Assembly: GCA_041658185.1 (NCBI GenBank)
Contig: JBBAAR010000002.1
Location: forward strand, 143 to 64,142
Length of the DNA stretch: 64,000 nucleotides
Reading direction: 5' to 3'
Origin: Elusimicrobiota bacterium
GTDB lineage: Bacteria; Elusimicrobiota; UBA8919
Part shown: positions 6,822 to 64,000 of the stretch, piece by piece
Position numbering within the stretch: position 1 is the first letter of the stretch
Layout: each line of letters begins with the position of its first letter
Notes under the pieces: generated by a model
The model's database searches: none
What the model was told of the DNA's origin: nothing
Seen by the model: only the letters and a program-made list of their open reading frames with translations
Translations under genes and position numbers: made by a program

Positions 6822-7043
6822 ATGAAAGAGAAAGTTGAAAAGGCACTGGAAAAAATCAGACCGTTTTTAAAGAGAGACGGCGGTGATGTAAAACTTATTG
6901 ATGTCACGCCCGACGGAGTTGTAAAAGTAAAACTTCTGCTTGCCTGTGCCGGTTGTCCCATGGCATCAATGACATTGAAAAACGGAATTGAGAAGGCGAT
7001 AAAAGAGGAAGTTCCCGAAGTAAAATCTGTTGAAGCGGTGTAA
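6822..7043 (+). CDS. NifU-like (Nfu-type) Fe-S cluster assembly domain protein
   Basis: A GGAGG Shine-Dalgarno at 6812-6816 sits 5 nt before the ATG at 6822, so the listed ORF start 6810 is probably too long. C-A-G-C-P (a CxxC motif) and the Nfu fold-like sequence are present; the protein is 74 aa. Confidence 0.7.
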   Translation: MKEKVEKALEKIRPFLKRDGGDVKLIDVTPDGVVKVKLLLACAGCPMASMTLKNGIEKAIKEEVPEVKSVEAV

Positions 7044-7156
7044 GTAAAAAATTTTATCCAAAAATACAAAAGAATAAAAAGAGTACCGGCACGGTAATTT
7101 TCAGACGGTAAATCGTTCGCTCCGGAATTTTATTTTTTGATGTGTAAAAATAGTAC

Positions 7157-7185
7157 TTGACAAAAATGCAAAAATTGTTTATAAT
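7157..7185 (+). promoter_or_regulatory. Perfect consensus sigma70 promoter (TTGACA-17 nt-TATAAT)
   Basis: TTGACA at 7157-7162, a 17-nt spacer and TATAAT at 7180-7185. The predicted TSS is about 7192-7194. Confidence 0.5.
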
Positions 7186-7191
7186 TATAGT

Positions 7192-7458
7192 GCCGAAGCG
7201 ATGAAATTGCTGGGGCGCTTAATTATATCGCTTTTGATATACTTAAGTAGCGGAAACGAAAATAGCAAATGCCGGTGTAATAATCGGCAGGCGCAAAGTC
7301 GAAGTCCCGAAAAATCGGGAGGCTGGACTGCCGAAAAATGACACATTGAGGGAAGCCGAGTTCTCGGCAGTTCTGGGGTTTTGCAGTTGAGCGGAATGTT
7401 TCGCTGTCGCTCAACATGACATTACCGGGAAGTCGGCTTTCTTTAGCCGACCCACGAA
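7192..7458 (+). ncRNA. Candidate structured RNA or cis-regulatory leader (class unassigned) transcribed from the consensus promoter
   Basis: A ~260 nt GC-enriched segment carries at least five hairpins: gccggtgtaataatcggc, cccgaaaaatcggg, gccgagttctcggc, ttgagcg...cgctcaa and gtcggctttctttagccgac. It ends just before the ATG at 7460. No family signature could be confirmed by eye. Confidence 0.25.
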
Positions 7459-7459
7459 T

Positions 7460-8005
7460 ATGAAAGGAAAAATGTTGAACAGGAAAATCGCAATCATCAC
7501 AATAATTTTTTCCGCTCTGATAGTGGGGTTAGGGATTTCTTTTGCTTTCGGAAATACAATCAACCCCAACTGTCCCGATGAGATAAAACAGGCAATTCAG
7601 AGTTGGGACAAAGGGCTTGATGAAAGGGATGTCAAAAACAATGTAGTCGCCCAATTCATTGGGCAAACGCCTGATAAATCAGGCGACTACAATTTGCGGA
7701 CACTTTTTTTAACATCCCTAATCACCCTTACATTCAACACACCGGTTCACTCTCAAATCATTGTTTCAAACGCGATACAAAAATTATTCACAATTGCCAG
7801 ACACTATCTCCGCCTACCGTCTACCGTCTACCCTATCCCCTCTTTAGTTGCCGTTTTCACCGCTCTCAAACGCTATTTTGAAAAAATATTTCTATTGCTA
7901 TTGGGTTTGATTTTACCGGTAGTTTGTTGTTTTACACTTTCTCACTTTCTCACTTTCTCACTTTCTCACCGACTTTACTATCGTTTCCACAATCTCCGTC
8001 TTTAA
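7460..8005 (+). CDS. Doubtful small ORF. It may be a small signal-anchored protein in its first ~90 codons; its 3' half is translated short tandem repeats.
   Basis: The N-terminus M-K-G-K-M-L-N-R-K-I-A-I-I-T-I-I-F-S-A-L-I-V-G-L is signal/anchor-like. The C-terminal third is encoded by a (CTACCGT)n repeat and (CACTTTCT)4 octamer repeats, giving ...LSHFLTFSLSH... Confidence 0.3.
   Translation: MKGKMLNRKIAIITIIFSALIVGLGISFAFGNTINPNCPDEIKQAIQSWDKGLDERDVKNNVVAQFIGQTPDKSGDYNLRTLFLTSLITLTFNTPVHSQIIVSNAIQKLFTIARHYLRLPSTVYPIPSLVAVFTALKRYFEKIFLLLLGLILPVVCCFTLSHFLTFSLSHRLYYRFHNLRL
7814..7834 (+). repeat. Heptanucleotide tandem repeat (CTACCGT), about 2.8 copies
   Basis: Read directly: ctaccgtctaccgtctaccc. 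Confidence 0.8.
7935..7966 (+). repeat. Octanucleotide tandem repeat (CACTTTCT)x4 plus a partial unit
   Basis: Read directly from the sequence. The unit length is not a multiple of 3 and the repeat lies inside ORF 7460-8005. Confidence 0.9.
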
Positions 8006-8087
8006 TTTTTTAACCCGGCTATCAGTTTAGAATAAATGGTCTGTGCTTTTATGCACACGGGCTATTTCTTGTGGACTGATATTTTTT

Positions 8088-8111
8088 CGCGCGCGTGCGT
8101 GCGTGCATGCG
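8088..8111 (+). repeat. Alternating pyrimidine-purine tract (CG/TG)n, 24 nt, Z-DNA-prone
   Basis: cgcgcgcgtgcgtgcgtgcatgcg, read directly. Confidence 0.8.
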
Positions 8112-8468
8112 TTCGGAGTCCCGACGGAAAAAATGAAAATAATACCCAACTGGTTATTAAATAAAAATTCAGCGATTAAGCGATTGTTGTTATTGCGAGG
8201 GCGAAGCCCGTGGCAATCTTTAGTAAAAATCGTTTACAGGCGGGTTTTACACCTTTTTAGGAGAGTGTTTTTCTTTCCGGTCGGAGTAAAAAAGGAGAGC
8301 GCCAAAAACCAAAACAACAACACTAAAAAACAAAAAAATAAATGTGAGTTTATCCATTATCAATCACCTCCGTTAAAAGCTGCGCCTATGCTCAAGAACA
8401 ATACAAACAAAATCCCACCGGTAATAGCCATTAACCATGAAAATTTATCTGCAAGCGCAATATTGCCG

Positions 8469-11400
8469 ATGATTAGTGTTATTGCGTCCACCTGCGCCAG
8501 ATTAAGAAAAACTTTTGCTAAACCGTCTTTCTGCCGTCTGTTAAATTTCATAAGTGACATTATACCAAAAGCAACAAATTTTGTCAAGGGAAAAATTGGT
8601 TTATGGAAATTAAGAACCGTCCCCGTATTTCTCCCCGTATTTCTTTTAATGTTTATTTGTCTGATAAATCAGACCGCTACAAAGGTTTATGCGGATGATA
8701 TAAAATGGGGAAATTTTCAGGGTCCTGACCCTACTGTTACAGGCAATGGAATGGTTGATGATAATGCCAATACCGACCAGAATAATATGACATTACTTGC
8801 TGCCAGGGGTATCGGTTCCGGTGAACCGTCTATTGCGGTTGGTGTTCGTTTCAGAGCACCTAATAATATGACAATATCAGAGATCGGTCTCTATTTCGGT
8901 GATACAACTATCTCTGCCATGGGTTACAGGGTATATATTACATCAGGTGTTGCAGATGGCTCTTCACCACTCAATTTCTCACTTATAGGGGTTGGGACTG
9001 ATGGTCTGACAACGGGTTGTATCGGTTATTTTAATGACGATGGTACCGGTGCAACCTCAGGTGTATGGAGAGTAACCGGTCCACTTGCCGGTGGGTCCGC
9101 ATGGATTAAAGGCGGCGAGGTCTACTGGATAGTTGTTTCTTCCAGACCGGGCGGTACAGCAGGTGAAGCTTACATACAGGGTTATGTTGCCGAAGGACAG
9201 AATACATATAAATACTGGCAGCAATACGGGTTAAATACAAACAATCTTAAACTTTATGATGACCAGATGATGTGTGCTTACAATATGACCGCTGATAATA
9301 ATGATGCTTATACAAATGCAGCATCTTTAACGCCCTGTATCGCTATAAAATCAGGAGATGGCGGAACTATTTCAAATATGGTTGAGGATACATTAAATAC
9401 TTCAATAGTGGATGATGGTTCAGGAGGATTCAAAAGACAACTGATAAAAGTATCAACTTGTGATTTTAAGGCGGATGCTATCGGGCTTTATCTTTCCAAA
9501 AGTGCTACCGCACCCACGCAACCATTAAAAGCGGTTCTTTATAACAGGCAGGCAGGGACATTTGTAGCAATTGCAACCGCTACTTTTAATGCTGCAGATG
9601 TTCCTGTTACTACTAATATGAACTGGATTGAGTCATATTTTGTGCCATCCGTAACACTTGATGCAAACCAGAATTATGCTATTGTGTTTCATGCACCCGG
9701 TGAAGCAAATGATTATTATGTTCAGTTCATAGGCGGTAATGAACAATATGGCGGGATTACAAATAACCTGTCATTGACTTTTGAAGGCAATACTGATGGT
9801 AAAGGGCAGACCCGTCTGGCTGGCGACCCGTTTTCTGATGCGGGCTGGGCTGATGTTACAACCGGCGAGGCAGGCGGTGATTATGCGTTTTATTTGGTTT
9901 CTGATAAAACAAACCCGAAAGGCGCTATTATTACACCGCCGGAGGGCAGTTATTACAAATCACTTTCTACGATTTCAGGCACTTCAGTAGATGGCGGCGA
10001 ATTAGGCAGATTCGGCATAAAATCATTAGAAATTGCGATTAAAGCGGTAGATTCAAACTGGTGGGATTTTGCAGCGGGCGGCAACGGTCCTGGTGATGGC
10101 GGCTGGGATGAAGGTCTTGCAGAATACACTTCCGTAACACTTCCGCCTTTAACAACAGGGCAGTTTGTATGGAATTATAATTTCAACAATCAGTGGATGA
10201 GCAATATGCAGCATATAGTAAGATGTAAAATAACCGATTTTGCAGATAATGTCCTGACTTTTGACAGAAACCTTATTGTTGACCGCTCTTCGCCTTCTGC
10301 AATTTGCACATTGCCAACAAACAATCAATGGGTAAGCACATATGATATATTACCTACCATTTCAGGAACCGCATGGGATGATTCAATTTACGGCTCGTTT
10401 TCGCCGAATTTTGATGGTATTCAAATACGGTTAGCGCATTTAAACGGCGGGACTTCTTATTACAACGGTGCTTTTGTTGAACCAAACGGAGAGTCAGCAA
10501 CTGTATGGCTTTCTACAGAATCTGCTGGTTCCTGGAGCACATCAATCAGCGAATCAAAACTGAAAGGTGTGTGGGGGAAAAGCAGGTTTGCGATGCCGTG
10601 GAGTGTTGAAGGTTCGTCATATCAGGTAACAGCAAGAGGACAGGATAAAACCGGTAACAGAACAGCCATTGCACTCTATCAGATGACAACTTTTTACTAT
10701 GACCCAAATCCGGGTATTTCTACGGTAACTTATCCCAGTGGACCTTCCTGGGAGAGTATCTCAAGCCCGTATTTCATTGGTGATGCTACCGATACTATTT
10801 CTGCCGAAAATTCAACTAAAAAAGTTTCGCTTGGTACGAAGGTTGAAGTAAAACTGTTGAAAAAAGCAGACGGTACATATTGGCAGGATGATGGCTCATG
10901 GGTCGCTACGCTTCCTGAAGATAGATGGCCATCAACAATAAACCAGGCAGATTCAAGTTATGCGGTTAATAAGGGAACATGGTCATTAAAAGGCCCTGTT
11001 GGTCTTCCAACCGGCAACTATCATATGTTCAGCCGGGTTGTGGATAATGCAGGCAATATTCAAACACAGTTTACGGAAACCGGGGTTTATCGTTCAAGCG
11101 TTTCATTTTCTGTTGATGCTGCTAAACCGCAAACATACATAACTATTCCGAAAAGTGATGCAGAGTCATTAGCAAGAACCGCACCTTTAGCAACTATATC
11201 AGGGACCGCTGAGGATTCGCCTACAGGTAGCCCAGCCAAAGTAGCAGAAGTGCGGTTAGCAATACTTAATCGTTCAATCGGTAATGGCACAACCAGTTTC
11301 TGGTCGCCCGGGAACAGCCAGTGGGTAGAGGGTTCTGTAGCAACTCCTTCAACATATGTTGTCTGCTCTCTTGATACCGCATTTACACCTGCGAAATGGG

Positions 11401-14400
11401 GTTATGTGATGCCGGGCGGTGCGTTAACCAGCGGGCATAAATACGAGGTATTTGCGTGGGCGAAAGACAGTGCGGGAAACTGGCAGGATAATCCTACCGC
11501 CTACCGCGGTCTCAACTATGTTGCTAATTCAACACCTTCTGTGAAATGCTTCTGGTGGGAAGTGGATAAACCGTCAACAACAATAACCTCGTTTTCGCCG
11601 TTTGGTTATCTGCCGTCAATGAGTTCAATCGGAGGGACCTCTGTTGAAAATTACGGAAGCGGTCCTGCGAATACGGTTGCAAAAGTCCAGGTTCGTATTT
11701 CAAAAACAATAAACGACAATACGGCATTGACATACGGCGTATCGGCGACAACAGGGACATTTGAGACAGACGCAGGGTTCACGAGTTGGCTTGACGCCGG
11801 AGCAGTGACCTCGCCCTGGGAGGTTACGGTATTATCAACACAGCCGTTTGACAGCGGCGGTTCTTATATTGTCCGTTCAAGGGCATATGATAACACATAC
11901 AAATTTGATGCTGCCGAAGGCGGGCCCGGTAGTGCGTTCTCCAACACCGAGAACTATTCGCCGGGCGTCTGGTCGGTCAATCGCTCTTCTTTTACTTTTG
12001 ACAATGTTCTGCCATATGAGAATGATATTGTTTTTCCCGCCGCGGGTAATTCACGGCTGAATAACAACCCGATGACATTCAACGGCTACTCAAAAGATGC
12101 GGTTGCTATGGCACAGACCGGCTCCATAGAGTTCCAGTTGATTGAAAACCGGCTTGAAGCGAATGCAAGATACTGGAAATCAGGCACTAACGATTGGTTT
12201 GATTTCGCGAATGCCGACTGGGCTAATGCTGACTGGTGTGCGCCGTCAATAGAGGTATGGGCTACTTCATCAACCTGGACAAAAGCATTTGCTTCCGGTA
12301 AGTTCGCAAATAACGCTATATATTCGTTAAGAACAAAGTCAAAAGACAGAGCGAGTAATTATACAACCCTTTATTCAACAAGAACATATACTTTTGATAC
12401 CACAGCACCGGAGACAGCAGTTACCAATACCAAGCCGCCTACATACATAAATAATACATATGCATCACAAATAGAAGGCACCGCACTGCAGACGGATTAT
12501 CAGTATATTCAGTTAAGGACAAGACGGTATTATGATATGTACACTTGGGAAGGGACTGTTTTTAATGTTGACGTCAACACAAAAACAGTAACCGGATACG
12601 GCGGCAACAACTGGTACTATGTGAATATTTCTACAAAAGACCTTACTGATGGCGCAACTTACGGGATACTCTGCTGGGGAACTGATGTTGCTACTAATAT
12701 TGAATCCACAGCAGCCAAGCCGGACTATGTATTTTATTACGATATAACAAGACCTACACAGACCATCACAAAGCCCGCACAGAACGAAGTTGTAACATCG
12801 CTGCCTGCAATTACCGTTAATGCGGGCGACACTGTGCCTGCTGCAAATCGTGTAGCAAGCGGTATTGTTGAGGTAAAGATAAAAATAGTGGCAACTCAAC
12901 TTTATTCAAACACAACATACTGGAGCGGCACGCTTGTTGGTGGATGGACACCTACTGAGACATGGCTGCCGACTGAAGCGAGTGGTAATAACTGGGTGTA
13001 TCCACTTGCGGGCTATGTAATGCCGTCCTTCACCGATGACAAACTTTACGAAGTAATCGCAAAATGTAAAGATAATTCAGGTAACTGGTCTATTGTGTAT
13101 TCAACAAACGGGTTCAAGCAGGACCAGACATCACCGACGCAGTCAACAATACTCAGACCATCAGCAAACAATATCTTTTTTAACCAACTAACAACACTTT
13201 CCGGACAGTCACAGGATTCCGCCAACACCTCCAATATCACACGAGTAGATATCACAATCCGGGATATGACACTTGGCTCAACTTATTGGCAGGGTTCTAA
13301 TAATACCTGGATACAGACATCAACAGTAACGACAAAGAATTATGCTGCAACACCTGTGACCTGGCAGTATGATGTTTCAGCAGTAAATCCTTTTACAACA
13401 GGGCGTCGGTATGAAATGACTGTAAAGGCTTATGATGCGCCCGGCAACGGCGAGGCAGTGCCGCCTACCCGCTATTTCTATTATGATGTTTCGCAGCCGA
13501 CTACGACCGTAATAACTCCAACGCCGGGAAGTATAGTGGCTTCACTTCCTGAAATTACAGGTCGTGCCGGCGATAACCCATCGGTTCAGGCAGGTATCCA
13601 AAAAGTTGAAGTCCAGATATATGACGGCGCCCAATACTGGAGTCCCTGGACAGGTAGTTGGGGCGGTGTCGGCGTATGGTATTCTTCTTCACCGTCAGAT
13701 GGTAATATTTACGCCGCCGGTATATGGAAAACTACGGCACCGTGGACTTCCGGCAGTAAATACTGGATAAGAAGCAGGGCATATGACGGCTCCGTCAACC
13801 AGAATGAAACAGGCGGCGGACAGTACGAAGACCCGAACTACGAAGCGACATTTACATATGACAATACCCCGCCGTTGATAAAACTTGTTACGCCCGCAGC
13901 AAGCAAAACACGGCTCAGTTCTCTGCCTACTATATCAGGCACCTGTCAGGATGGTATAAGGATAAATACATCAGGTCCTATAGAAATAAACATACAGAAT
14001 ACAGGCGAGGTCGGCGCTCAAGTAACATGGAATGGCACCGGATGGAATGCCGGTTCGGATGATGGTTTATGGCTCGCTACAAATACATTTGTAGGCGGCT
14101 ATTCCGGTGGCGGCGGGCAGGTATCAAGCGGCACCTGGAATTACACATATCAATATGTGCTGAATGCATCAACCCCTTCACCGCCGAGTAGATACCAGTT
14201 AAGAATACAATCAAGAGACGAAGCGGGAACATATTCGGTAATTTATTCAACAAAATTCTGGTATGATAAAGTCAAACCGGTTTCGGAAGTGACAAACCCC
14301 GGCGCAACTTATATTTCTCAATTAGGCACTATTTCCGGCACTTCTTCGGCTGACACAAATCCGGTGATTTCAGGAGTACAGATAAAAATCAAACGCCTCT

Positions 14401-17400
14401 CGGATAATGCTTTATGGGGTGGTAGTGCATGGGATGGTGCCGGATATAACAATGCAAGTTCAGTTGAGGTATATTCATCAAGCGGTATATGGGTATACAA
14501 TCCCGGTACACCCGTAGCACTTACCCCTGGTACGTCATACCAGATATATACATTTGCGACTGACCAGGCGGATAATATAGAAAATGAAAATACGCATCCG
14601 ATATTCTGGTATGATACGACCGCGCCGACAACAAAAATAGAATATCCGCTCAGCAACGGTGAGACAACGGGTCTTCCGACACTGTCCGGGACCGCTTCGG
14701 ACAATCTTTCAGGCGTTTCACAGGTCCGGATAAAAATTCAGGATGATTTTACAACGGATGGCGGGAAATCATGGAATGGTTCTGTTTGGGATACAAATGA
14801 TAACTGGGTTACTGCGGGTCTCGGCTACAATGCATCAATTGGTGTTTCAACTTGGACATACATATATTCCGGCGCTTCGCTCAACGATTGGTATTGGCTC
14901 ACCTCAAAGGGATATGACGGCGCTACTCCTATAAATACTCAAACAAGTTATGCGGTTGGTACATCATCCAACAGGTTTATAGCGGATACTTCATTTACAG
15001 GACCGACGATTATAATGAGACCGAAGTCCGATGATGATTCAATTGCCAGAAAGGACTTGACAACAATTTCAGGAACATCTTATGATACTCGCTCGCATTA
15101 TTTGGTTCAGGCGACGCTTCAGTGGTTGACCTATAACGGGTTGACAAGTGCCACGACTTTTTGGGACGGTTCGCAATGGCTTCAGGGAGCAGTTAACGGC
15201 TCTACAAAAGTTGTCTGTGAAAGAAGCGGTTCAGGAACAGAGATAAACTGGTGGTATGATTGCACATCGGCGATGACCAGCGGGCACAAATACGAGACCC
15301 GCGTTTATGCACGGGACAATGCCGGTAACTGGCTTGCCGAATATGGTGCTTATGTTAAGGGTGGTACGGATACGGTCAAGCAGTTCTGGTATGATAGTTC
15401 AGTCCCGGCATCAACTATTACGGTTCCGTCAGGCGGAATAATATCAATGCTTACAGACCCTGTATTAGCAACAATTTCCGGAACATCCGTTGACAATCCT
15501 TCATCAGGTGCCAGCGGTGTGGGTAAAGTAAAATGGTGTTTATCAAATGACGGCGATACCCAATCGTTCCGCATCTGGTCTGTTTCATCAGGAACCTGGG
15601 AAACAGGACTGTATTATAATGATGGTGAATCAATATCCGGCGCCTGGAGTCCCTGGAAAGGTTTATTTTACAGCACCCAAGCATTTAATAGCGGCTCAAC
15701 ATATCGTTTGAGAGCAAAAGCGATAGATAATGCGGTTGCCTCAATCGGCGAAGCGTCCGGTTCCGGAAATACGGAGGCGGACAAATCATATTATGACAGC
15801 CGATTCAGATGGGATACAGAAGCACCTTTATCAAAGATAGAAAAACCTACCCTGACGGAAGCCCCTCCCGGCGGTTCGGGACGACTAAACTCGCTCGCAA
15901 CCGTTTCAGGAACTGCGGATGACGACACCGGCACCGGCAAAATAAATTCAAACGGCGTAAAACTCAATATAAAAGATGTAACCCAAAACAAGATGATGCA
16001 GTCGGATTATTCATGGATAGCAACTCCGGCTGACGAGAACAACTGGCCATGGGTTGATACGCTCTTTTACGGTGTTTATCCGGGTTCTTGGACTTATAAT
16101 TATTCCGTGGTCGGTTCAACTAATAATGATGTATATCAGATAATAGCGAAAGCGTGGGATGCTTCTAATCCTGCAAATGCCCAGACGGTAAATATTACTT
16201 CCCGGACTTTTGTGTGGGATAAGACAAACCCTGTAACCACGGTTACAAATCCGGCGGCAACATACATATCCGATTTAGGAACGCTTACCGGCGCATCTTC
16301 TTTTGACACAAAACTTTCGCCGGGGATACAAATAAAGGTGAAAAGAATGACTGATGACAAGACATGGCTCAACACCGATTGGGCTTCCGGCGATAACCCG
16401 AACTATGTCACGACTAATGACGGCGGCGGCACTAATCCTGACAACTGGAGTTATAATGCCATAACCAACTCAAATCTTACAGCCGGTACTTCTTATCAAA
16501 TTACAACCTGGGCGGAAGATATAGCAGGAAATGTTGAAGCACAGGCAGTAAAGCGGACATTCTGGTATGACAACCAGAAGGCATCTGCGACAATAGTTTT
16601 TCCTGAGAATGACAAAGAGGCGACCGGTTGGCCTGTATTTTACGGCAGCGGCTGGGATGATTTAGCAGGGACGGATACTATAAAGATAAAGTTACAGCGA
16701 AAGGTGGACGGACTGTTCTGGAATGCCGCTTCCGGTGCTAACGGTTCCTGGGGCGGTGAGATATGGAATAATAGCGAGGTATATGGCTCGTCTTGGGTAT
16801 ATCGGTATGGCACCGGTAATGCTACTCTTAGCGAGTGGTATTATTTAACGGTGAAGGCGGCAGACAAAGCGTCGCCTGCAAACGAGCAAACCGTTTTTGA
16901 AACAAGCCCGGAAGCGGTTAAGTCATCATGTACATTCATAGTTGATGACAAAGCGCCGACCAATCTTAAATTCACAATACCTAATCTTGATAACGAAGGA
17001 ATAGCGAGAAAGGATATTCTGACGTTTTCCGGTTCTTCTTCCGACAACCGCACTCATTCTAAAGTTGAAATGACTTTAAGGGATTTAACATGGGGGACAA
17101 GTTTCTGGTCGGGTTCGCAGTGGCTTCAAGGTGTTGATAACGGCTCAACCAGGGTGGTCTGCGGTAAAACGACCGGCGCGCCGCCTGAAACAATCACATG
17201 GAATTATTCCGTCGGTGCATCAACGATGGTTTCGGGACATAAATATGAGGTTCGCGTGTGGGCAATGGATACTGCCACCAACTGGACGGCGAATTCCGGG
17301 GCATATGTTCAGTATCCCGGTGCAGGTTCAACGGATACCGTGAAACGGTTCTGGTATGAATCAACCGAGCCGGATTCGGTAATACTCAGTCAATCAGAGG

Positions 17401-53400: not shown

Positions 53401-56400
53401 CTGCCGGCGTTCCTTTCACGGTGACTGTCAACGCCTGCGATGACGCATACAATATCAATCCAAGTATTGTCAGCCAAATTGATATTTGGACGACCGACCC
53501 GTATTCTAATTATTATTTGTCGGACGGCGAATCAAACGCAATTTTACAATCAGGGACAACATATTATCCGCTCACGATGGTAACTGCTTCGCTGTGGAGC
53601 GGAACGACTTATACTATAACAGCATATGATTTGGATAGTATCGATCCATTACATCCGCAAAATACTTCACCCGGTGTGCCGACAACTTACGGCGATGCCG
53701 TAAAATTACAGGTCTTGCTGCCGGGCGAGACGGCTGTCCCTGGTTCGCCAACCGGTAAAACGGCAGTAACGCCGTCAACACAAACGGCAGGGGTCCCTTT
53801 CATAATAACGGTTAACGGCGTTGACTCCAACTGGAACAGGAACCTTACTGTTGCCGAGCAGGTGACGATTCAGACGACGGATTTATACGATACGGCGCCG
53901 TCGGGCCAGGGTCTTGCTAACGGTACCACGACATTTTCTATTACGTTTAAAACCGGCGCCAAAGGACTTACGCCGCGAACTACTCATCAGATATGTGCCA
54001 CCAATCAGCCGGGTTATACGCTGGTTTCAAATACTTCAACTGTCGTTGCCTGCAAACCGGATTCCATTTCAAAACTTTTAATAATTCTGCCCGGTGAAAG
54101 CGCGGTTGCCGGAAAGAATACCGAACCGTACGGAAAGACCGGAAATCCCGGGAATTGGACAGTAGGCGCATCAACCGGTATAACAGTAGTTGCCTGTGAC
54201 AGCAATTTCAATGTCAAAGATGTCAACCAATCGGTACAGCCGAACGTGTATATTTCACTTTCGGACCCGTTTGATGAATCCAATCAAAATCTTTCACTTT
54301 ATGCGAATGGCTATAGAACATTTTCTGTTATACCTTTCACGGTAGGATTATGTTCTGCTACTGCGTGGTCTACCGGATACGAGCAATACACATCAACAAA
54401 AGTTACGGTTGTTGCAGGTGCAGCGACACAGTTGCAGGTTCTGGTTCCGGGAGAAACCGCTCGTCCCGGTGATACGTTAAACAGCGGGAAAACAGGCGTA
54501 CCTGATAGTGATGGGAATAATGCCAACGGTGTCCAGTCATTTGTTGCAGGAACTGGTTTTAAGGTAACTATAAATGCCTGCGATGACAAGTGGAATGTTA
54601 ATTCGGCTGATACATCAAACATAGAGATTACGACAACGGACAATTATGATACTGCTGACCCTGCGAGCAGAACACTTCAAGGCGGGGTGACATATTACAC
54701 TGCGACGTTCATAACTTCGGAAGGGGTGGGAAGCGGAATTACAATTACTGCTGTTGACAACAGCAGTCCGTTTATGAATCCCGGCACCTCTGCCAATGTC
54801 CCGATGGTTCCGGGAACACCGGAACGGCTACAAATACTTGTGCCGGAAGAAACACCGCTTGCGGGTTCTTCATCAGGTAAAACAGGCAGTATAGCAATAC
54901 AAACAGCAGGAATGCCGTTCACAGTTATCGTTCGTGCCTGTGATAGCAACTGGAATATAACACAATCATCGCCGATTGTTCAACTGACAACTTTTGACAC
55001 AAATGACATTGACCCGGTATCTTTCCAGTTGGAAGCGACCGGTACGAAGACGGCGAGCATCACTTTTGTAACGTCAGGAATTTCCTCTATGACAGTTGAT
55101 GACACCGAGGGATGGGGCTATACTTTTAATTATTATATCACGCCGCAAATCACTGTTAACCCGAGCGCTCCCGTTAAACTTCAACTTTTAATTCCGAATG
55201 AGACATCGCTTCCGGGTTCATCAAGCGGTAAAACCGGAACCGTTGCAAGCAGACAAGCGGGTCTGTCGTTTGATGTCACAGTGAATCTCTGTGATACCAA
55301 CTGGAACAAAGTGCCCAATCCCGCCAGTTATAATCCGGGTTCCTGGCAGAAACCGATACCGGATGTTAAAATAACCTCGCCGCTCGACGGCTACGATGTT
55401 GAGCCGGATACAAAAACGCTTGACCTCGGCTCATATATATTCAATATGACTTTGAGGATGGCATCCACACAGCATCTGAGAGCGGAAGATATTGACGGTC
55501 AGTCACCCGGTTATGCAGCCAACAATTCTTCAACTTTCTCTGTTACGCCCGCTGCCATTGCCGGATTACAAATACTACTTCCCGGCGAGACGGCAGTTCC
55601 CGGTTCCGGGGATTATACAATTGATCCAACAGGAGGCAAAACGGGTTCTCCTTCTAATAGAACCGCGGGAATACAGTTCACCGTCACCGTTTCCCTTGTT
55701 GACCAATATTTCAACGTAAGAACTGAAGATGATTCAACACATGTATGGGTTGAGACCAATGACCTTTATGACGCCCAGCCGACCACCCAGACGCTTAATG
55801 CCGGCATCGCATATCTCAATGATACAAAACTTGTAACAGCGACAACTTTTCATATATTTACAACGGGAAATGGTGTTAATCCGTCATGGAACATTTCAAG
55901 TCCGCTGTTCACCGTCGCATATTCAACGGCTACAAAATTGCAGGTAATTTTATCAGGTGAAACATCGGCACCGGGAAAACCGCCTTACACGGATAATACC
56001 GGTGGAAAAACTGGAACGCCTTCTACAAAGATTGCAGGCGCAGCATTTTCAATTACCGTTTATGCGACGGACGATTACTGGAACAGGATAACGGCAAATC
56101 CTCCAGATCCAATAAATATAGGAATAACATCACCCGACCCGCTGTTTATTCCGCCAACATCTGCAACTCTAAATAACGGTTTTAAGGAATTTAACATCGC
56201 AAACGGTTTAAGAACCGCATGGTCAACCAATACCGTCTGTGCATCCGATATAGACGGCACACTGCCAAACCTTGCCGCATCAACCTCAACAATAGTAAGG
56301 ATTTATCCTGAGCCGGCAGCATTTATGGCGTTTTCGCAGGTGCAGTCCGCTGCCGTTGCCGGAAGTCCGATATATCCGCGTCTGACCGTATATGATAAAT

Positions 56401-59400
56401 TCGGTAATGTATGCTCCACAGGCACGAATGTTTATACAAACAGTGTTATATTCTCTGTTCCTGCGGAGGAGATGTTCACCGGGAAACAGGAGCCGTCAGT
56501 TCCTGCAAACATCACATTTACTTCTCTTTATGCCGGCACTACCGTTCTTTACAGCGGTCATCCTTCCGGTCCTTATGTGTTAAAGAAGGCGGGAGATCTT
56601 CATATCCATGCTAATCAAGTCGGTAATGCGACAATTTCAACCAACAGACCTGCTTCTCCACCTACTACGTATTTCGGCTCCACTGACCCGACAATTACCG
56701 TCTCCGCAGGACCCATACAGGCGGTTCTTGTATCTCCGAATATATCCGCGGAAGACCCGACGAATGTTTCCCCCTCGCCGCCTGGCAGAAAACAGATAGA
56801 GGGGCAGGTTGTGGACGAGTTTGAGAACTCAATTTCTTCCGACGGGATTACTTGCTATATTAGCGTTGTTGACACGGGAACGTCCACAAATATCGGTAGT
56901 GTTAAAGATAACAGTTCCGTTGTCTGGACATCAACTACCACCGATACAGGCGGGAAAGTCGGCGGTGCGCTCGGTAATCTTTATTATTATGTTTCCACTA
57001 AAAAAGCTGATTTTGCAAGAATCTGGATAGCTACAATGACTGCCCCGTCGGATGTTTCACAATTTGTGAATCTGAAACAAAATATTTCGGCAAAAATGCT
57101 CACCATCGGCGGCAACCCGGAAAAACTTGTGTTTATTTCATCGCCGACATCTGCAACCGCCGGCAATTATTCCGAAAAGGTTAAATATATCATTGAAAGG
57201 CAGGACTCGTTTAACAACCCGACGGAGCAAATGCCTGCATCAGACATTTCGCTTCTTTTGCCTCCCGGCGAACTTACCACCCACACCAATTCAGGAAAAA
57301 CATATCAGTTAAATTTCGGCTTCCGTAATGCGGGCGACAATTTTATAAGCAGTGTAAAAATTCCATATGAAGATGCTGCGGCTGATGTCGGCGGCGCTCA
57401 ATATGTTGCCAGCCGCGCCGCATTCTGGTATAATGACGAGATGGCATCTGTCCCTGTAGGCGAGGATAGCAGAACAGGAACCTGGTCAATAACATCAAAA
57501 CTCGGAACATATGAGATAACACACAACCTCCCTGTCAATTCCGCGCAAGCGGTCAAGGTTGCTTTTGATAATCCGTCCCGGACGCTCACGGCAGGAAAAG
57601 CGAAATTAGGTGCCGCGGATGTCAATTTTGAGGTTGAACTGCAGGATAACTTTAATAACCCGGTGTTTTCAACCGCCCCCTTCGTTGTTAATCTCACTGT
57701 TGAAAGAACTGCATCCGCAAATAACGATGCCTACGGGTTTTCAAATTCAACCGTTACGGTTCAACCAATATATCCGACAGGGGGATTTGTAATACAGATT
57801 ACATCGGTCACAATACCTTTGGGATATTATTATGCAACATTCTATTATCTGGATACCTGCTCCACGGAGTTACAGGGTGTAGGAAAACCAAAAATAACTG
57901 CGACACCGCAGTGGGCGATAGCATCTTCCACAAACGGGCCGACTGTTATTGCGGATGGAATTGCCAAGATTGCCTTCCCGCAGACATATTACGGCAACCT
58001 CACGGCCGGGACAACTTCCGGCGCCATCTGGATTCAGACAAGAGACATATATTCCAATCCTTCGGCGGTAACCGCCTCCGAGGTGTTTGAGTTAACATCA
58101 AACGGAACCGGATTTAAGAAGTTTTATTCGCCTAACAGCGGCTGGTTGGTAGGAACCGGGCAGTGCAAGATGAATCTTGGTGAGAAAACAACATTTTTCT
58201 ACTATCTGGATGTTGTCGTCGCTACTCCTACGCTTTCCGCCGCGAGAAGCCCGTGGACAGCGGAAACCTCATCCATAACGGTAGTCGCCAGCAGGGTTGA
58301 GTCGCTTGCCATAGAGTTTTCTGGTGTTCAAAGCAGACGGCTTATAGCAGGTACAACCATACAATGTTATCCCGATTATAACACAACCGGTTCAACCGAT
58401 ACGAGGTTTATAGTAAGAACCCGCGACCTTTACGGCAACATTACTGCGCCTACAATAGATATGTATCTTGATATCCAGAGCAATTCGCTTGACGGTGATA
58501 TCGGCGATATAAACTTCAACTGGTACGGGTATAACGCCGCCGGTAAAATTCTTATTGCTTCAAATACTACTGATGGCGTATTCTATTACCGGGATGAGAA
58601 AACAGGTAATCCTATAATTACAATAGCAGAGAAGGCAGACCAGTTTGTTTATGATATTGTAAATGCTACGACATCGCCGACTATCACGCCTGCAAAAGCA
58701 TCTGATTTTTCAGTTGTGAAACAGGTTGAGAATATCTCCGTTAATACGCCTGCAAACGTTTTAATAATAGCAATAGATGATTTTGGAAATATTGCTGCGG
58801 GCGACTCAATAAACGGCAACTATTATATCGGAACCGCTTCATTCAGCGTGTCGGGTAAAGGAACCGTTACACCAAACCAATATACATTTACAACAGGTGA
58901 AAGCGGCGATAAAGGGCAGCACCCGATACAGGTTCAATCAAAGTATATTGAGCCGTTAAAAATATCTGCGACGGATTATGTTACAAAGACAGGTCAGTAT
59001 TCAAATGACCCAAATAATTGGATAACCGGCTGGACGGATGGCATGGGTATCCCCGGTAGCCCGGGTTCATCAACGGATTTATCAACAAAAGGCGGGTTAT
59101 TGGCCACTGATGACCAGGCGCCCGAACCTAATAACCTTGCCAAAATGGCGATTGGGATTGCTCAATATCTATATCAGGGCGATGGCTATAGAGCCGACTC
59201 ACCGGCGCCAAAAGCCATGGGGCGTCTCTCACTTAAAACGGTTCCCAGCGGGAATCTCTACTGGAATAACTTGAGGGTAGATCTGTCGTCAGGAACAGGC
59301 GGCTGCAGCGCTACCACCGGAGAGATAGGCGAGATTGCACTTTACAGAGATGCTAACGGCAACGGTTTATTTGACGGCGAAACATCACTTGGAGGCACAC

Positions 59401-62400
59401 CGGTTGATACATTTATTTCATCCGGCAATATAATATCTGATACCAATAAATATTGCATATTGGACCTTTCAGGCGATAAACTTCAAACTATTGGTCCGTC
59501 GGAGAGCGTCTACTTTGTTACCGTTAGAATACCGGTTGCCGCTACAAAGGAAAGGACTGTAGGAATAGGGATATATGGAACGGATAGTTTCGGCAAAGGT
59601 TCGGGTTCCGTTGACCTTGCAGCGAACGCAATACCGTTCATATCGTATAATTCCATAATCCAGACACAGCCGCCATATGTCACGGTAATTTCCTCGGATA
59701 TAGCCGCATGGTATCCCGGGACAGAGGGTACGAAACAATATCCGAACGTTCCGCAGGGAACATCCAATGTCGGTATTCTTAAATTGGGTATGTGGACAAA
59801 TGAATTCTCATCTTATTTAAGGAGAATCAGGGTTGCCGCGACCGGTACTGGTCCCGGCGCCGGTAGAACCTCCCAGGATATTGAATATGTTCAACTCTGG
59901 CTTGATAGAAATCAGAATGGCTTGTTTGACTATGCATTGGATAAACCTCCGGTTGCTACAGTCAACTTCTCAACTGGCACGACATGGATAGATATAGCGG
60001 ATAAGAATCCGCCGGATGGTATTAATGATAACGATGAGAATACAACAATTGATATTGAAGATTTGATAAATACAACCACAAGATACTACTTTATTGTTTA
60101 TAAAATCGGCGATAACGCACAGATTACCGATACAATAGGCGTAAAGATTCCTATTGACCAGATAATTTTACTGTCAGGCAGCGGTGCATTAGCGACGCAT
60201 GAAGAATTTCAGTCATCCCAGCCATCCGTCAGCCCGACCGTGGACCATTTGCGCCTTGAACCTGTAGTTTCAAATATGCCCCCCGACTTTGTTACCCAGG
60301 GCCAGCAAAATGTAGGGATGGGTGTATTTAAGTTAACTACATTACAAAATGCTGCTATATGGAAGAATCTTAAACTTGACCGTCTTGGCTTGGCGGGCAG
60401 TTCCGATGCGGATATAACGGGCGTCAAGGTTTGGTTAGATGTCAATAATAATGCGCTTCTTGATCCGACAAGCGACCAAGTGGTAGTGTTAAGTTCAAGG
60501 AAATTCGGCGAGGCGCCGGATGGTCCCGGACAGGCAACTCTTACAATTATCGGCCCATATGACGGTCAGGAAATAAAAATGGTTCCGAAACAATATATTG
60601 TGTCATATGATTTCTCATATTTTGCAACACTCGGTACCACCAATCTTGGATTTACAATCCCGACAACTGATTACATAGTTATTCTTTCGCCGGATATCGT
60701 TGATGTCTATAACAGTATCCCGCCGTTACCAAGAAACACGGGCGATATGAATGAATATCCGGATACCGTTGTGTGCACTCCGAATTCGTTGGCGCCGGTG
60801 ACTTTACAGCAGGGTGCAACAAATGTCGCGATGATTCGTTTCAATATGAAAACGACAAATTCCTGGGCGCCGTGGGAGAGGGTAAAAATTAAACGGCTCG
60901 GCAATTCCAGAGATACGGATGTCAGCAGTGTAAAAATAGTAAAGGATAACGGCGACGGTGTGTTCAATGTTAATATTGATACAATTATAGGAACCGGCTA
61001 TTTCAACAATAAGGGAATTCCCGGCGAGGCCGATGTGAGATTTTCAACCTGGCCGGTTAACTATACCCAGACAATTTCAACATATACCCGGTATTATTAT
61101 GTCGTCTATGATCTTTCAGATTTGGCGGTTCCGGATTTCTATATCGGTGCGGGGTTTGAAAATATTGATTCCACCTCAAGTGCCCTTGCCGCCCTCCAGT
61201 TTAGTTCCCTGGACAAACCGGAATATATTTCGGAGCCTAATGTTATGGGAACGACTAATCTGCCGTTCACAACATACACAGGCTTTCCGCAATCTCCTTA
61301 TACTTTACTTGTGCCGACGCCGCGAGTTGTTACCGTCGTGCCGACCGATCTTGAAAAGACGGTGTGTGCCCTCGGCGCCGGTATCGCTCTATCCGAAACG
61401 GATATTCCTATTTACCCCGCAAACGGCGGTGCCGAGGCGTTTGACCCGCATTCAGTTGAGGTCAGTCCCGGCGTCGGTGGCAGAAGAGTGCTTGTTGATA
61501 ATGAAGTTATCTATTACACCGCGGTCTCAACCGGTATTGATGTCACAAATTATCTTCGGAATGCATCTCGCGGTGACCCAACTCTTGCCAATTCAGTAGT
61601 TTCGGGACACAGCGCTAATACAACCATTTGGAAGGCGTTCATTCAATCGGAGCAGAATGTCCCGATGCTTAAACTTTCACTGTCCTGCAACGGCTATAAT
61701 GTCAAGTGGTCTCAGTTGCGTCTGAAGAGGGAAACTCTTGCCGGCGGGAATGTTCTTGACTCGGATGTCCTTGAAATAAAGGTCTGGCGCGATGCTGAAG
61801 GGTCCTACTACGGCAAATTCTCCGCGGATGATGTCTGTATTTCAACCGGGATTTACTATCCTTACAAGTTTGGCTCGCCTGGTTTCAATTATCAAGGAAC
61901 CGAAGGTATGGCTTATATTGATTTGGATGACCCTGAGTGGAAAACAAAATATACCCCCGGCGTGCCGGGAAGTTATGCGGTTATCACTACCACTCCGGCG
62001 ATTTACTATGTCACATTTGACATTTCGCAATCGGCGAGGGAAGATGATTCCATCGGCTGCTCCGTATTCGGATTCAAGGTCAACGACCCCAACACCGTTT
62101 CTGCACCGATTATCAAATCCGCCACACCTAAAATCAAATCAACAAGGGATATTATGGAAGTCCGTTGGGAAAACAGAGCCAAAGCCACAGTTCTTCAAGC
62201 AGCGGACAATTATGCAATGCTTGCCCTTGACCTGCAAACCGCCACTCGTGAAGCAATATGGACCGGTTTAAAAATTAAAAAGACCGGTCTGGCGATTGAC
62301 ACCGATGTGGATATAATAGACATCTATAAAGATACCAACTTTTCTAATGAACTGGAAGTATCTACTGTAACCGGTCAGGGTGATGAAAAACTTACGCTTA

Positions 62401-64000: not shown

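Follow-up and report, generated by a model that had tools for sequence, protein, structure and literature searches.

We found that the 56-kb open frame on the plus strand of the window (the whole stretch of DNA analysed, 64,000 nucleotides long) is genuine, a single unbroken gene from an Elusimicrobiota bacterium that has not been cultivated, and we consider its product, of about 18.8k aa, to be probably a fibrillar adhesin held by its C-terminus, in which a base shared by relatives carries a stalk of variable length with a head at its far end. Its size by itself is no novelty: counts of proteins exceeding 10,000 aa exist for this phylum, as far as the accessible portions of the surveys go, and homologues of 17–18k aa lie unannotated in public MAGs. 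What is new is the anatomy, namely a candidate C-terminal anchor, a conserved base of 8–9 modules plus a C-terminal domain (CTD), a stalk that varies 2.6-fold and a rare head, together with module families that neither Pfam nor NCBIfam covers; the conserved gene cluster around the giant has not been described previously. A CTD of the type IX secretion system (T9SS) superfamily beside PorV/PorQ- and PorP-type barrels, in a phylum without reports of type IX secretion, suggests either that T9SS-like sorting is wider than thought or that these parts serve another pathway.

The reading frame and its limits

From 8031 to 64000, the plus-strand frame in which 8031 is the first codon base runs for 18,656 codons with 0 stops, although base composition would lead one to expect about 1,020 (log10 P of none, about −456). 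Each of the remaining five frames carries 714–1,279 stops across this interval, and the longest open run in shuffled sequence (n = 20) was 207 codons. The original prediction had called this frame free of stops and had taken the off-frame and antisense ORFs for its short shadows, and both statements hold, the longest competitors within 8031–64000 being 558 nt on the plus strand and 504 nt on the minus strand. The small minus-strand ORFs at 8247–8587 were absent from protein collections and gave no significant Pfam match, and Rfam and tRNA scans of the window returned nothing.

An exact 50-mer taken at the window end had no match among genome or metagenome contigs, and the 3′ end was reached by way of a 50%-identical locus (L083), the homologues of whose downstream gene led to a protein (P0107) on an ENA metagenome contig of 194,834 bp. 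This contig, ERZ27247322:k141_299182, is identical to the window over the 14,412 + 8,762 nt compared (about 23 kb), and the locus on it (L084) is identical to window 55239–64000. There the giant gene stops at the equivalent of window position 64,772, that is, 772 nt or 257 codons beyond the window, giving a protein of 18,767 aa from the ATG at 8469 or of 18,879 aa from the ATG at 8133; the latter is the ENA gene call, whose length agrees exactly with the frame in the window. The earlier description of a gene of at least 18,500 codons that was still running was right as to size, at about 18.8k aa in total, and overstated as to the continuation; an extension of the 3′ end, which it had proposed as a check, yielded the stop codon together with a candidate sorting domain of T9SS type at the C-terminus, a signal that was on its list.

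In-frame alternatives to the start at 8469 are the ATG at 8133, chosen by the ENA caller, and the ATG at 8388, and in one homologue (P0086) a long pre-sequence likewise precedes the hydrophobic core. The opening 440–570 nt of this frame, from 8031 up to roughly 8468 or 8600, are probably non-coding, because their translation is unlike the rest and homology to relatives begins only at DDIKWGN (window 8694); coherent protein throughout, as originally claimed, is found for most of the frame but probably not for this part.

The best pair of DNA repeats is 82% identical over 210 nt, and the modules have mean identities of 27–38% at the protein level; the repeats are therefore too diverged in DNA for collapse or expansion during assembly to be the source of the array. 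The contig, of 183–195 kb, carries ordinary housekeeping genes as neighbours, and the flanking proteins MFA5778741-46 are deposited at NCBI as 'Elusimicrobiota bacterium'. GatA compared with GTDB representatives was uninformative as to taxonomy, its best match being only 60% identical and its matches spread across Poribacteria, Planctomycetota, Thermodesulfovibrionales and other groups.

Anatomy of the protein

The features of the gene and its product are as follows.

8031–64000, plus strand: stop-free frame of the giant gene; 0 stops, ENA call of 18,879 aa, stop located on the ENA contig
8469–8471, plus strand: start codon ATG, most likely but uncertain; no in-frame ATG, GTG or TTG from there to the hydrophobic core
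8586–8693, plus strand: predicted Sec-type signal peptide (KGKIGLWKLRT, core VPVFLPVFLLMFICLI, then NQTATKVYA), with predicted cleavage before DD; from hydropathy and alignment
8694–9893, plus strand: unique 400-aa N-terminal head, two beta-sandwich lobes by appearance; putative distal tip or binding domain
9894–42398, plus strand: T1 array, 86 Ig-like modules in tandem, each about 128 aa long, delimited by internal HMM iteration
42399–42773, plus strand: junction module between T1 and T2, about 125 aa long; no match to the profile of either array
42774–56282, plus strand: T2 array, 37 modules in tandem that recur about every 120 aa; Ig fold of invasin/intimin type
56283–59168, plus strand: non-periodic stretch of about 960 aa with Big_1-like motifs; no Pfam or NCBIfam match
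59169–63761, plus strand: T3 array, 8 modules, each about 180 aa long except for one that an insertion brings to 279 aa; D.NGNG.FD loop, cohesin/CBM-like beta-sandwich
63762–64000, plus strand: start of the C-terminal tail, with the first FN3-like domain cut by the window end; from the translation of the ENA contig

The sole hydrophobic segment of the giant protein lies at aa 191–219 of the frame (window 8601–8687) by hydropathy. A positively charged n-region and a VYA/DD site accompany it, and the alignment to the head of a homologue begins exactly after that site; the segment thus appears to be the N-terminal Sec signal peptide that a T9SS cargo carries, and the signal peptide and unique head of the original prediction are borne out. 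The head itself drew only a sub-threshold Pfam match (DUF4082, E = 0.021), and its relatives among 1.84 billion representatives number only two, P0067 (42% identity) and P0086.

The T1 modules share the motif TISGTA.D ... A.D.AGN ... F.YD..P at a mean pairwise identity of 27% and form a super-repeat of five modules, with identity raised at lags of 5, 10 and 15 modules. Against the PDB, the T1 profile matched the BIg tetramer of region II of MpAFP/MpIBP (4p99, E = 2.5e-8), an RTX adhesin (5irb, E = 5.9e-5) and SiiE (2yn3, E = 3.5e-3). The T2 motif reads KLQVLVPGETAVPG..GKTG.P..QTAG.PFTVTVNA.D..WN, and a fold search places T2 near Big_1 domains; sequence-profile searches of the PDB with T2 and T3 returned nothing significant, so that both arrays required fold searches. 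Self-seeded single-module HMMs found no partners for 56283–59168 or for the T1/T2 junction, and the T1, T2 and T3 profiles had no match within 56283–59168. The whole comes to about 145 modules (86 + 37 + 8, plus about 1,000 aa of irregular sequence, plus the terminal FN3 domains and CTD) with periods of 110–180 aa (0.35–0.55 kb), in place of the several hundred kb-scale modules first supposed. A domain search of the translation, also proposed at the outset, could be carried through but recognised almost nothing: Pfam over the whole in-window frame and NCBIfam over selected pieces gave only sub-threshold fragments of Big_3_3, DUF4082 and OmpL47. RTX/HemolysinCabind, SprB, Big_1 and IAT_beta had no Pfam match, and in the parts scanned neither collection revealed any domain of an enzyme or peptidase, nor SecA, GGDEF or dockerin.

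The 257 aa beyond the window comprise the remainder of the first FN3 domain, a second FN3 domain and a 105-aa T9SS-type/FlgD_ig-like CTD that ends in RKIGVIH. Taken by itself, this CTD lies under the curated thresholds of all models: it reaches FlgD_ig at E = 4e-4 and 20.7 bits (cut-off 27), or E = 0.0046 for a 344-aa C-terminal piece, and has no TIGR04183 match at E ≤ 0.01. Locally it matches the CTDs of PorU (E = 4e-4) and of a protease that depends on T9SS (E = 2e-5). A profile built from 24 orthologous CTDs matched the PorU CTD (6za2) over the full domain at E = 8.8e-8; weaker matches were the CTD of PorZ (5m11, E = 0.061) and, at E = 0.36, a Por sorting domain from a PorV–CTD complex (8glj_D). 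Among the family members, FlgD_ig is matched by 24 of 24, Por_Secre_tail (PF18962) by 17 and CHU_C (PF13585) by 15. Membership in the T9SS sorting-domain/FlgD_ig superfamily is supported at the level of the family profile, while strict model membership of the giant's own sequence is unsupported. The CTD is also the best-conserved part of the protein, the last 270 aa being 50% identical between the ENA locus and the related locus L087, as compared with 27–32% for the body, and all giants end in RK[IV]G[IV][IL][HN].

A full HMMER scan of 1.84 billion representatives yielded 85 relatives. Word-index protein searches with the last 900 aa, and with the head plus three T1 modules, gave no matches, and because the HMMER scan found 85 relatives these zeros reflect a sensitivity limit rather than absence. 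Intact homologues of 17,969, 17,339, 12,253, 11,316, 7,967 and 7,235 aa occur in independent MAGs, and a further one, of at least 16,403 aa, is cut by a contig end. Every homologue has 8–9 T3 modules and the CTD, in a total length that runs from 7.2k to 18.9k aa, and stalk length ranges 2.6-fold between relatives. At a related locus from another assembly (L091), the giant is split into genes of 725+, 1,453, 605 and 171 aa.

Gene neighbourhood and competing explanations

The gene directly downstream of the giant, named PorV/PorQ family protein at NCBI, matches NF033709 PorV_fam at 118.6 bits (cut-off 90). In 8 of 9 sampled genomes a giant lies upstream of such a PorV/Q-TPR gene, directly or with one or two small genes between, and in all nine, whose PorV/Q proteins are 34–100% identical, a FliG_M/FliG_C-TPR gene comes next after it. 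The FliG-like protein matches TIGR00207 over positions 108–333 of 338 at 123.9 bits and has two hydrophobic segments, one on either side of a 170-aa stretch; a FliF/SctJ-like ring motif considered for its N-terminus found only a non-significant PDB match (SpoIIIAG, E = 0.65). Genes for FlbD, MotA_ExbB and MotB_plug+OmpA follow within 5 kb in three of the nine genomes (L092, L094 and L095), one of which (L094) has the PorV/Q-FliG-MotAB set without a giant; on the window's contig and in the two closest relatives, no MotAB occurs within 12 kb downstream. The cluster holds a second cargo/barrel pair, a protein with a CHU_C type-B CTD followed by a PorP_SprF-LysM protein whose barrel scores 30.3 bits against PorP_SprF (cut-off 22.3). 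A further downstream protein, of 1,098 aa, has no PDB, Pfam or NCBIfam match and no hydrophobic segment; the part read, its N-terminal 320 aa, is coiled-coil-like. In the 8 kb that precede the giant and the 12 kb that follow it, neither SprA/Sov, PorK/L/M/N or GldK/L/M/N and PorU/PorZ nor T1SS genes were found.

A barrel predicted for the outer membrane is thus at hand that could serve a T9SS cargo as shuttle or anchor. Type A CTDs are known partners of PorV, and SprB, a gliding adhesin of 669 kDa, is bound through its CTD by SprF (PMC9143113). The Elusimicrobiota barrel may nevertheless act in a pathway other than T9SS, because the Pfam family UPF0164, to which PorV/PorQ proteins belong, has members in spirochaetes and other organisms that lack T9SS. 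To our knowledge, the accepted range of T9SS is limited to Bacteroidota and their FCB relatives; the host lies outside that range, as its neighbouring proteins are deposited as Elusimicrobiota bacterium, and our literature search found no paper linking Elusimicrobia with T9SS.

From homology and the conserved gene order we infer that the 105-aa CTD is recognised by the PorV/PorQ-family barrel encoded next door, after the signal peptide seen in the sequence has presumably directed the chain through Sec; recognised in this way, the protein would be held by its C-terminus. The 8–9 T3 modules, the FN3 domains and the CTD would form a conserved base beside the outer membrane, and the 86 T1 and 37 T2 Ig-like modules a stalk whose length differs between relatives. 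The 400-aa head would then sit at the far end, where it might bind a surface, a polymer or another cell, at a distance of roughly 0.6–0.7 micrometres if the stalk is extended, a figure estimated from about 145 modules at 4–5 nm each. A tandem Ig-like stalk together with a putative anchor, formed by the CTD and the adjacent barrel, is part of what characterises a fibrillar adhesin; the class also calls for a recognisable ligand-binding domain, for which the head, with its sub-threshold DUF4082 match, is a candidate. The core of the original reading, a giant modular beta-sandwich surface fibre or adhesin, is upheld by the intact frame, the diverged repeats and the intact relatives, and its length figure stays an estimate.

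One could envision an extension of this explanation, which we consider rather unlikely, in which a machine spanning the envelope and powered by ions has the giant as its active part outside the cell. Its proposed parts are a membrane FliG-like rotor (transmembrane segments, FliG_M/FliG_C and TPR), a long coiled-coil protein, a FlbD-MotA-MotB stator and a PorV/Q-type barrel, and the motor would move the fibre along or around the cell, like SprB gliding on the GldLM-driven T9SS, or would instead energise secretion or retention, for which MotAB-like SiiAB with the giant adhesin SiiE is a precedent. The FliG_M/FliG_C-TPR gene that follows PorV/Q-TPR in 9/9 genomes, the FlbD-MotA-MotB genes within 5 kb in 3/9, the TIGR00207 score of the FliG-like protein with its flanking hydrophobic segments, and the precedent of SprB (PMC9143113, PMC8986121) all speak for such coupling, and the invariant FliG-like neighbour with FlbD-MotAB is a lead to a motor-coupled surface system. 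Against it, MotAB is lacking within 12 kb downstream in the window's contig and the two closest relatives, one genome has the PorV/Q-FliG-MotAB set but no giant, the stators may be those of ordinary flagella whose genes happen to lie close by, and the resemblance of the FliG-like N-terminus to a ring motif is non-significant. It is likewise doubtful, if possible, that the giant is the surface fibre of an undescribed machine of Elusimicrobiota and their relatives that joins a flagellar-type motor to type-IX-type outer-membrane parts; the latter would be the PorV/PorQ-TPR barrel, the PorP/SprF-LysM barrel and the CTD-bearing cargo. If true, this would be a new ion-driven apparatus that secretes, anchors or moves an adhesin, a third solution beside GldLM/T9SS gliding and SiiAB/SiiE.

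The protein could also be an envelope scaffold, a surface layer, sheath or matrix in which the cohesin-like T3 modules assemble proteins and the Ig arrays lie flat along the cell. Although Pfam and NCBIfam recognise no adhesive domain in it, and T9SS type A cargo of P. gingivalis makes an electron-dense surface layer (PMC9143113), this is improbable: some 145 tandem modules with a unique terminal head are the anatomy of a fibrillar adhesin and not of a lattice S-layer (PMC8286594, PMC9210967), and a constant base under a stalk varying 2.6-fold fits the reach-setting behaviour of 'periscope' proteins (PMC9704523). We find it scarcely credible that the gene is a chimeric or repeat-expanded assembly, or an unexpressed pseudogene. 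The chance of 18,656 stop-free codons is about 10^-456, near-identical DNA repeats able to mislead an assembler are lacking, the 183–195 kb contig has ordinary housekeeping neighbours, and C-terminal architecture and gene order are kept in seven other giants (one cut by a contig end), which together outweigh the short-read origin of the metagenome assembly (the contig name is MEGAHIT-style) and the broken giant at L091. A multifunctional giant of the Omnitrophota style, predatory or cell-wall-degrading, with embedded enzymes, peptidases and SecA-like domains, is brought to mind by the grouping of Elusimicrobiota with the PVC-related phyla surveyed for such giants and by a PilZ gene at window 33–299, pilZ being a flanking gene of Omnitrophota giants in the available portions of that survey (bioRxiv 10.1101/2023.11.21.568195). 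The likeness extends to an uncultivated PVC-related lineage, single ORFs that run to tens of kilobases and a scarcity of recognised domains. However, the Omnitrophota giants (Archaeovorins, dockerin-type; West-Roberts et al. 2023), as far as the accessible text describes them, exceed 30,000 aa and combine transmembrane anchors with domains of enzymatic, C39/S8 peptidase and SecA-like kinds. The Elusimicrobiota giant, of 18.8k aa, showed no enzymatic, peptidase or SecA domain, nor GGDEF or dockerin, where it was scanned; besides the head, the junction and about 1,000 irregular residues, it is simply a modular fibre made up of a CTD and beta-sandwich modules of four kinds. It lies below the 30,000-aa class, which the same accessible text reports only in Omnitrophota (bioRxiv 10.1101/2023.11.21.568195), and such a function is extremely unlikely.

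Comparison with known giant surface proteins

Like the C-terminally anchored fibrillar adhesin that we favour, SprB of Flavobacterium johnsoniae, a T9SS type B cargo, is a very large repetitive surface protein with a Sec signal and a C-terminal T9SS-superfamily sorting domain, and its gene is directly followed by that of a FadL-like PorV/PorP-family barrel, SprF, which is believed to retain the CTD on the cell exterior (PMC9143113). The Elusimicrobiota giant is, however, three times longer (18.8k vs 6.5k aa), comes from another phylum and has unrelated repeats, with no Pfam SprB match; its CTD family scores best on FlgD_ig/type A models and not on CHU_C, its barrel has a TPR extension that sets it apart from SprF, and a FliG-like protein, not GldLM, is the conserved neighbour.

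The RTX/T1SS adhesins (MpIBP of Marinomonas primoryensis, SiiE of Salmonella and the LapA type) resemble the giant in an extender of about 100 tandem BIg modules, the T1 profile matching the domains of MpIBP region II and SiiE by sequence, and in an expected length below one micrometre. Such adhesins have no Sec signal, end in RTX repeats and a T1SS signal, and are retained N-terminally, and their genes adjoin those of an ABC transporter, an MFP and TolC. In contrast, the giant has a predicted Sec signal, a T9SS-type CTD, no RTX repeats and no T1SS genes in the 8 kb before it or the 12 kb after it, and because the Sec signal and CTD stand in place of the RTX end, its polarity is presumably reversed relative to theirs. 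The T2 fold resembles the Big_1 domains of invasin and intimin (inverse autotransporters), but the giant lacks their N-terminal beta-barrel, LysM and C-type lectin tip, and sequence similarity is undetectable.

The rank among the largest bacterial proteins that the original prediction gave the gene is sound as to length, about 18.8k aa, but less so as to exceptional size, as the phylum is already known for proteins of at least 10,000 aa. These are reported as frequent in Elusimicrobiota in the consulted portions of one survey (bioRxiv 10.1101/2023.11.21.568195), and those of another record an enrichment in proteins of more than 5,000 aa (PMC11573180); the architecture, CTD and neighbourhood of the Elusimicrobiota giants are not described in those portions of either source. 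The gene offers a handle on how small uncultivated bacteria spend 56 kb of genome on a reach of about half a micrometre.

Compared with the fibrillar adhesins and 'periscope' proteins (Monzon et al. 2021/2022; Whelan et al. 2022), the giant stands at the extreme of the class in length, and it has been left unannotated because the domains of its stalk, head and base are outside the Pfam sets used for detection. It shares with them the tandem Ig stalk, the unique terminal domain and the putative envelope anchor, and in both the number of stalk repeats differs widely between relatives.

Extent and integrity of the open frame

As the original prediction held, the plus-strand frame from 8031 contains no stop up to the window's last base (55,970 nt, 18,656 codons), where base composition leads one to expect ~1,020; the remaining five frames carry 714–1,279 stops each over the same interval, no rival open stretch exceeds 558 nt (+) or 504 nt (−), and 20 shuffles produced open runs of at most 207 codons. 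The open frame is thus real and far beyond chance, and the giant is an intact gene.

The window matches ENA metagenome contig ERZ27247322:k141_299182 (182,877 bp; window = contig position − 156, from an exact match of the upstream GatA protein), on which the giant is called as 18,879 residues from an ATG at window 8133. At NCBI the neighbouring proteins are MFA5778741-46 ("MAG: Elusimicrobiota bacterium"); their contig there measures 194,834 bp. To reach the 3′ end, we started in a JGI metagenome, at a locus of 50% identity (L083), and went through its downstream gene to the homologue P0107 on the 194,834-bp contig, and from there to L084 (contig positions 55,395–77,023), a public copy of the window's contig whose first 8,762 nt are identical to window 55239–64000; its 5′ counterpart, L001, is identical to window 1–14412. 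Extension to a stop and a C-terminal sorting signal, proposed with the original prediction, yielded both: a stop at window-equivalent 64,772 and, at family-profile level, a C-terminal domain (CTD) of the type IX secretion (T9SS) superfamily. There are thus 18,913 open codons, encoding 18,879 aa (ATG 8133) or 18,767 aa (ATG 8469), so that the frame described as still incomplete does run past the window, but lacks just 257 residues there. Among the matches listed from GTDB species representatives, none to GatA exceeded 60% identity, and hence no close representative was found.

Because the best DNA repeat pair within the giant is only 82% identical over 210 nt, collapse or expansion of repeats by the assembler is an implausible source of the gene. 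In another assembly (L091 1–7091; ENA ERZ28563683 scaffold_1152) a related giant is broken into genes of 725+, 1,453, 605 and 171 aa, whereas the same locus in NCBI GCA_036804825.1 (L090 1–7091) holds a single 17,339-aa gene. Pseudogenisation at strain level, phase variation or faulty assembly could account for the split, and the discrepancy is a reason for caution over any single giant ORF.

Module anatomy and relatives

Self-seeded HMM iteration and MAFFT alignments gave the following layout (aa numbered from window position 8031), in which Ig-like and cohesin-like sandwiches follow one another along the giant.

8694–9893 (+), aa 222–621: head, a unique 400-aa domain
9894–42398 (+), aa 622–11,456: T1 array, 86 Ig-like modules of ~128 aa, mean identity 27%
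42399–42773 (+): T1/T2 junction, 125 aa, outside either array
42774–56282 (+): T2 array, 37 invasin/intimin-like Ig modules, period ~120 aa, mean identity 38%
56283–59168 (+): non-periodic region, ~960 aa
59169–63761 (+): T3 array, 8 cohesin/CBM-like modules of ~180 aa
63762 onward (+): tail (FN3-like, FN3, 105-aa CTD), mostly past the window end

Of the Pfam/InterPro scan suggested with the original prediction, the Pfam side was run on the whole in-window frame, with NCBIfam on selected pieces, and almost nothing was recognised in 18.7k residues; the head matched DUF4082 alone in Pfam, below threshold. The T1 profile matches bacterial Ig-like extender domains of the Marinomonas ice-binding adhesin (4p99, E=2.5e-8), as well as RTX adhesin 5irb and Salmonella SiiE 2yn3. 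T1 modules form a super-repeat of five, with identity of 0.29–0.31 at lags 5, 10 and 15 against a baseline of 0.265, indicating that the array grew by duplication of ~1.9-kb blocks. The most recent internal duplications agree with this protein-level period: 30531–30940 and 36039–36451 are spaced 5,508–5,511 nt apart (15 modules; 71–82% DNA identity), and 32310–32679 and 34167–34539 are spaced 1,857–1,860 nt apart (five modules; 70–73%).

An exhaustive HMMER search with head, T3 and tail as query, covering 1.84 billion representatives, returned only 85 proteins at E≤0.001, nearly all through T3 and two through the head; 38 of them carry the same CTD at the extreme C-terminus. One, P0020, is a 719-aa "mini" relative in which a separate signal peptide leads into two T3 modules, FN3 and CTD, and it shares 59% identity with the C-terminal region of the giant; base and CTD can thus exist without the stalk. 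A word-indexed search with two 900–1,000-aa pieces gave zero matches, as against these 85 (some 45–59% identical), and the 18,879-aa giant is apparently missing from the indexed collection; word-indexed negatives are unreliable for giant repetitive proteins.

The 5′ end and upstream genes

The sole hydrophobic segment of the whole protein by hydropathy, at frame aa 191–219 (8601–8687), has K/R residues ahead of it and NQTATKVYA/DD after it, and alignment with P0086, an N-terminal fragment of a relative, opens exactly at DDIKWGN, right behind the VYA/DD site. This fits a predicted, cleaved Sec signal peptide, in line with the one originally proposed. No in-frame ATG, GTG or TTG occurs between 8469 and the hydrophobic core, making ATG 8469 the most economical start; the assignment is uncertain. 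Translation of 8031 to ~8468 is unlike the rest of the protein. The region and the genes ahead of it contain the following.

33–299 (+): PilZ-domain gene (c-di-GMP receptor), at the window's left edge
334–2565: UvrD/PcrA
2562–2849: GatC
2955–4412: GatA
4405–6591 (+): family-39 glycosyltransferase (PMT-type, protein O-mannosyltransferase-like) fused to TPR repeats
6648–6675 (+): promoter with TG, 11/12 match, upstream of the NifU-like gene
6822–7043: NifU-like protein
7157–7185 (+): sigma-70 consensus promoter, perfect 12/12, upstream of the 7460–8005 gene
7460–8005: 176/181-aa membrane protein, last gene ahead of the giant
8247–8363 (−): small membrane-protein-like ORF (38/36 aa), behind the 8559–8587 promoter
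8360–8587 (−): small membrane-protein-like ORF (75/63 aa), behind the same promoter
8559–8587 (−): sigma-70 consensus promoter, perfect 12/12 (TTGACA-17-TATAAT with extended TG), directed leftwards

Two perfect 12/12 promoters within 2.5 kb is far above chance, and they may drive the giant gene. The minus-strand promoter and ORFs (8247–8587) sit antisense to the stretch taken by the ENA caller as the giant's N-terminus; both ORFs are absent from protein collections, uncalled by gene callers and without significant Pfam match. The glycosyltransferase gene lies 1.9 kb upstream of the giant, whose exported protein is 23% Ser+Thr; it is a candidate for glycosylating the fibre. PilZ genes lie immediately downstream of Omnitrophota giant genes, according to a preprint (bioRxiv 10.1101/2023.11.21.568195); here the PilZ gene is 8 kb upstream with housekeeping genes between, so its link to the giant is doubtful.

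The C-terminal domain and the downstream cluster

No other part of the family is as well conserved as the CTD (ISQVSNYPNPFDTRKGG...WEGKNELGDFVARGGYIAHIK...RKIGVIH). Built from 24 orthologous CTDs, a profile matches the CTD of the T9SS sortase PorU over the whole domain (E=8.8e-8) and FlgD Ig domains at ~1e-5; its matches to the PorZ CTD (5m11, E=0.061) and to a Por sorting domain (8glj_D, E=0.36) are weaker. In Pfam, FlgD_ig is matched by 24/24, Por_Secre_tail by 17/24 and CHU_C by 15/24. These matches place the CTD, at the family level, in the T9SS sorting-domain superfamily, the giant's own copy, taken alone, being below threshold on every curated model. Just past the window lies a cluster (L084 10001–20958; contig positions 65,395–76,352), comprising:

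First gene past the giant: PorV/PorQ-family barrel with TPR (PorV/Q-TPR), scoring 118.6 bits where the cut-off is 90
Downstream: protein with two hydrophobic segments, FliG middle and C-terminal domains and TPR (FliG-TPR)
Downstream: 1,098-aa protein, no hydrophobic segments, N-terminal part coiled-coil-like
Downstream: 542-aa protein with a CHU_C (type B) CTD at its end
Downstream: PorP/SprF-like barrel fused to coiled coil and LysM
Downstream: histidine kinase

Neighbourhoods in this contig and eight further assemblies, sampled through PorV/Q-TPR homologues (34–100% identity to the L083 query)
Assembly (locus); giant; FliG-TPR; FlbD-MotA-MotB within 5 kb
This contig (L084); 18,879 aa; yes; no
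ERZ4902888 (L085); at least 16,403 aa, cut by contig end; yes; no
GCA_040757695.1 (L086); 11,316 aa; yes; no
GCA_020523885.1 (L087); 7,235 aa; yes; no
GCA_016929635.1 (L088); 17,969 aa; yes; no
GCA_036804825.1 (L090); 17,339 aa; yes; no
GCA_044221725.1 (L092); 7,967 aa; yes; yes
GCA_017880035.1 (L094); none, RND efflux genes in place; yes; yes
GCA_043819795.1 (L095); 12,253 aa; yes; yes

The pairing of giant and PorV/PorQ barrel is conserved across genomes: a giant lies upstream of the PorV/Q-TPR gene in 8/9 and FliG-TPR downstream in 9/9, and all eight giants have 8–9 T3 modules and the CTD irrespective of total length. The third cluster gene encodes a 760–2,100-aa protein without Pfam match. 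Beyond it, the window's clade has the CHU_C cargo, the PorP/SprF-LysM barrel and the histidine kinase, and three other genomes have FlbD-MotA-MotB. The cluster looks like an undescribed envelope-spanning system. The boldest reading, a motor-coupled surface-fibre machine of a new kind, is in our view unlikely, though it would matter greatly were it to hold.

The giant combines an N-terminal export signal, a T9SS-superfamily CTD and an adjoining PorV/PorQ-family barrel gene. CTDs have known binding partners: PorV for those of type A, and SprF for that of the 669-kDa gliding adhesin SprB (PMC9143113). Export is probably by Sec, and, by likeness to these pairs, the adjoining barrel would recognise the giant's CTD and so tether it to the outer membrane. 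Such anchoring would set the polarity, with the conserved T3/FN3/CTD base membrane-proximal, then a T1+T2 stalk that varies in length, and the head farthest out, ~0.6–0.7 micrometres from the membrane (~145 modules × 4–5 nm). Fibrillar adhesins and "periscope" proteins share this arrangement (PMC8286594, PMC9210967, PMC9704523). The CHU_C protein followed by the PorP-LysM protein, a second cargo/barrel pair, mirrors PorP-PorE, proposed for non-mobile type B cargo (PMC9143113).

Other classes do not fit. An RTX/T1SS adhesin is rejected because a Sec signal is present and RTX repeats and, nearby, T1SS genes are absent; an inverse autotransporter, because there is no N-terminal barrel; and an Omnitrophota-type giant, because Pfam and NCBIfam show no enzymatic, peptidase or SecA-like domain in the parts scanned and the protein is below 30,000 aa. 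To our knowledge, an Elusimicrobiota host lies outside the accepted range of T9SS, and with its own CTD under curated thresholds the giant cannot be classed as a genuine T9SS substrate.

The original emphasis on record size is weak, since very large Elusimicrobiota genes are already documented statistically (bioRxiv 10.1101/2023.11.21.568195; PMC11573180), and the giant and its 17–18k homologues are already in public MAGs. We found no paper describing this anatomy, the module families missing from Pfam and NCBIfam, a T9SS-type CTD paired with PorV/PorP-type partners in Elusimicrobiota or the conserved neighbourhood of FliG-like and MotAB genes, and these points appear to be new. In more distant relatives, outside the window's clade, a stand-alone FlgD_ig gene of ~130 aa lies between the giant and PorV/Q-TPR (L087 9532–9939, L088 9580–9975, L090 9533–9922); its product looks like a free copy of a sorting or anchor domain.
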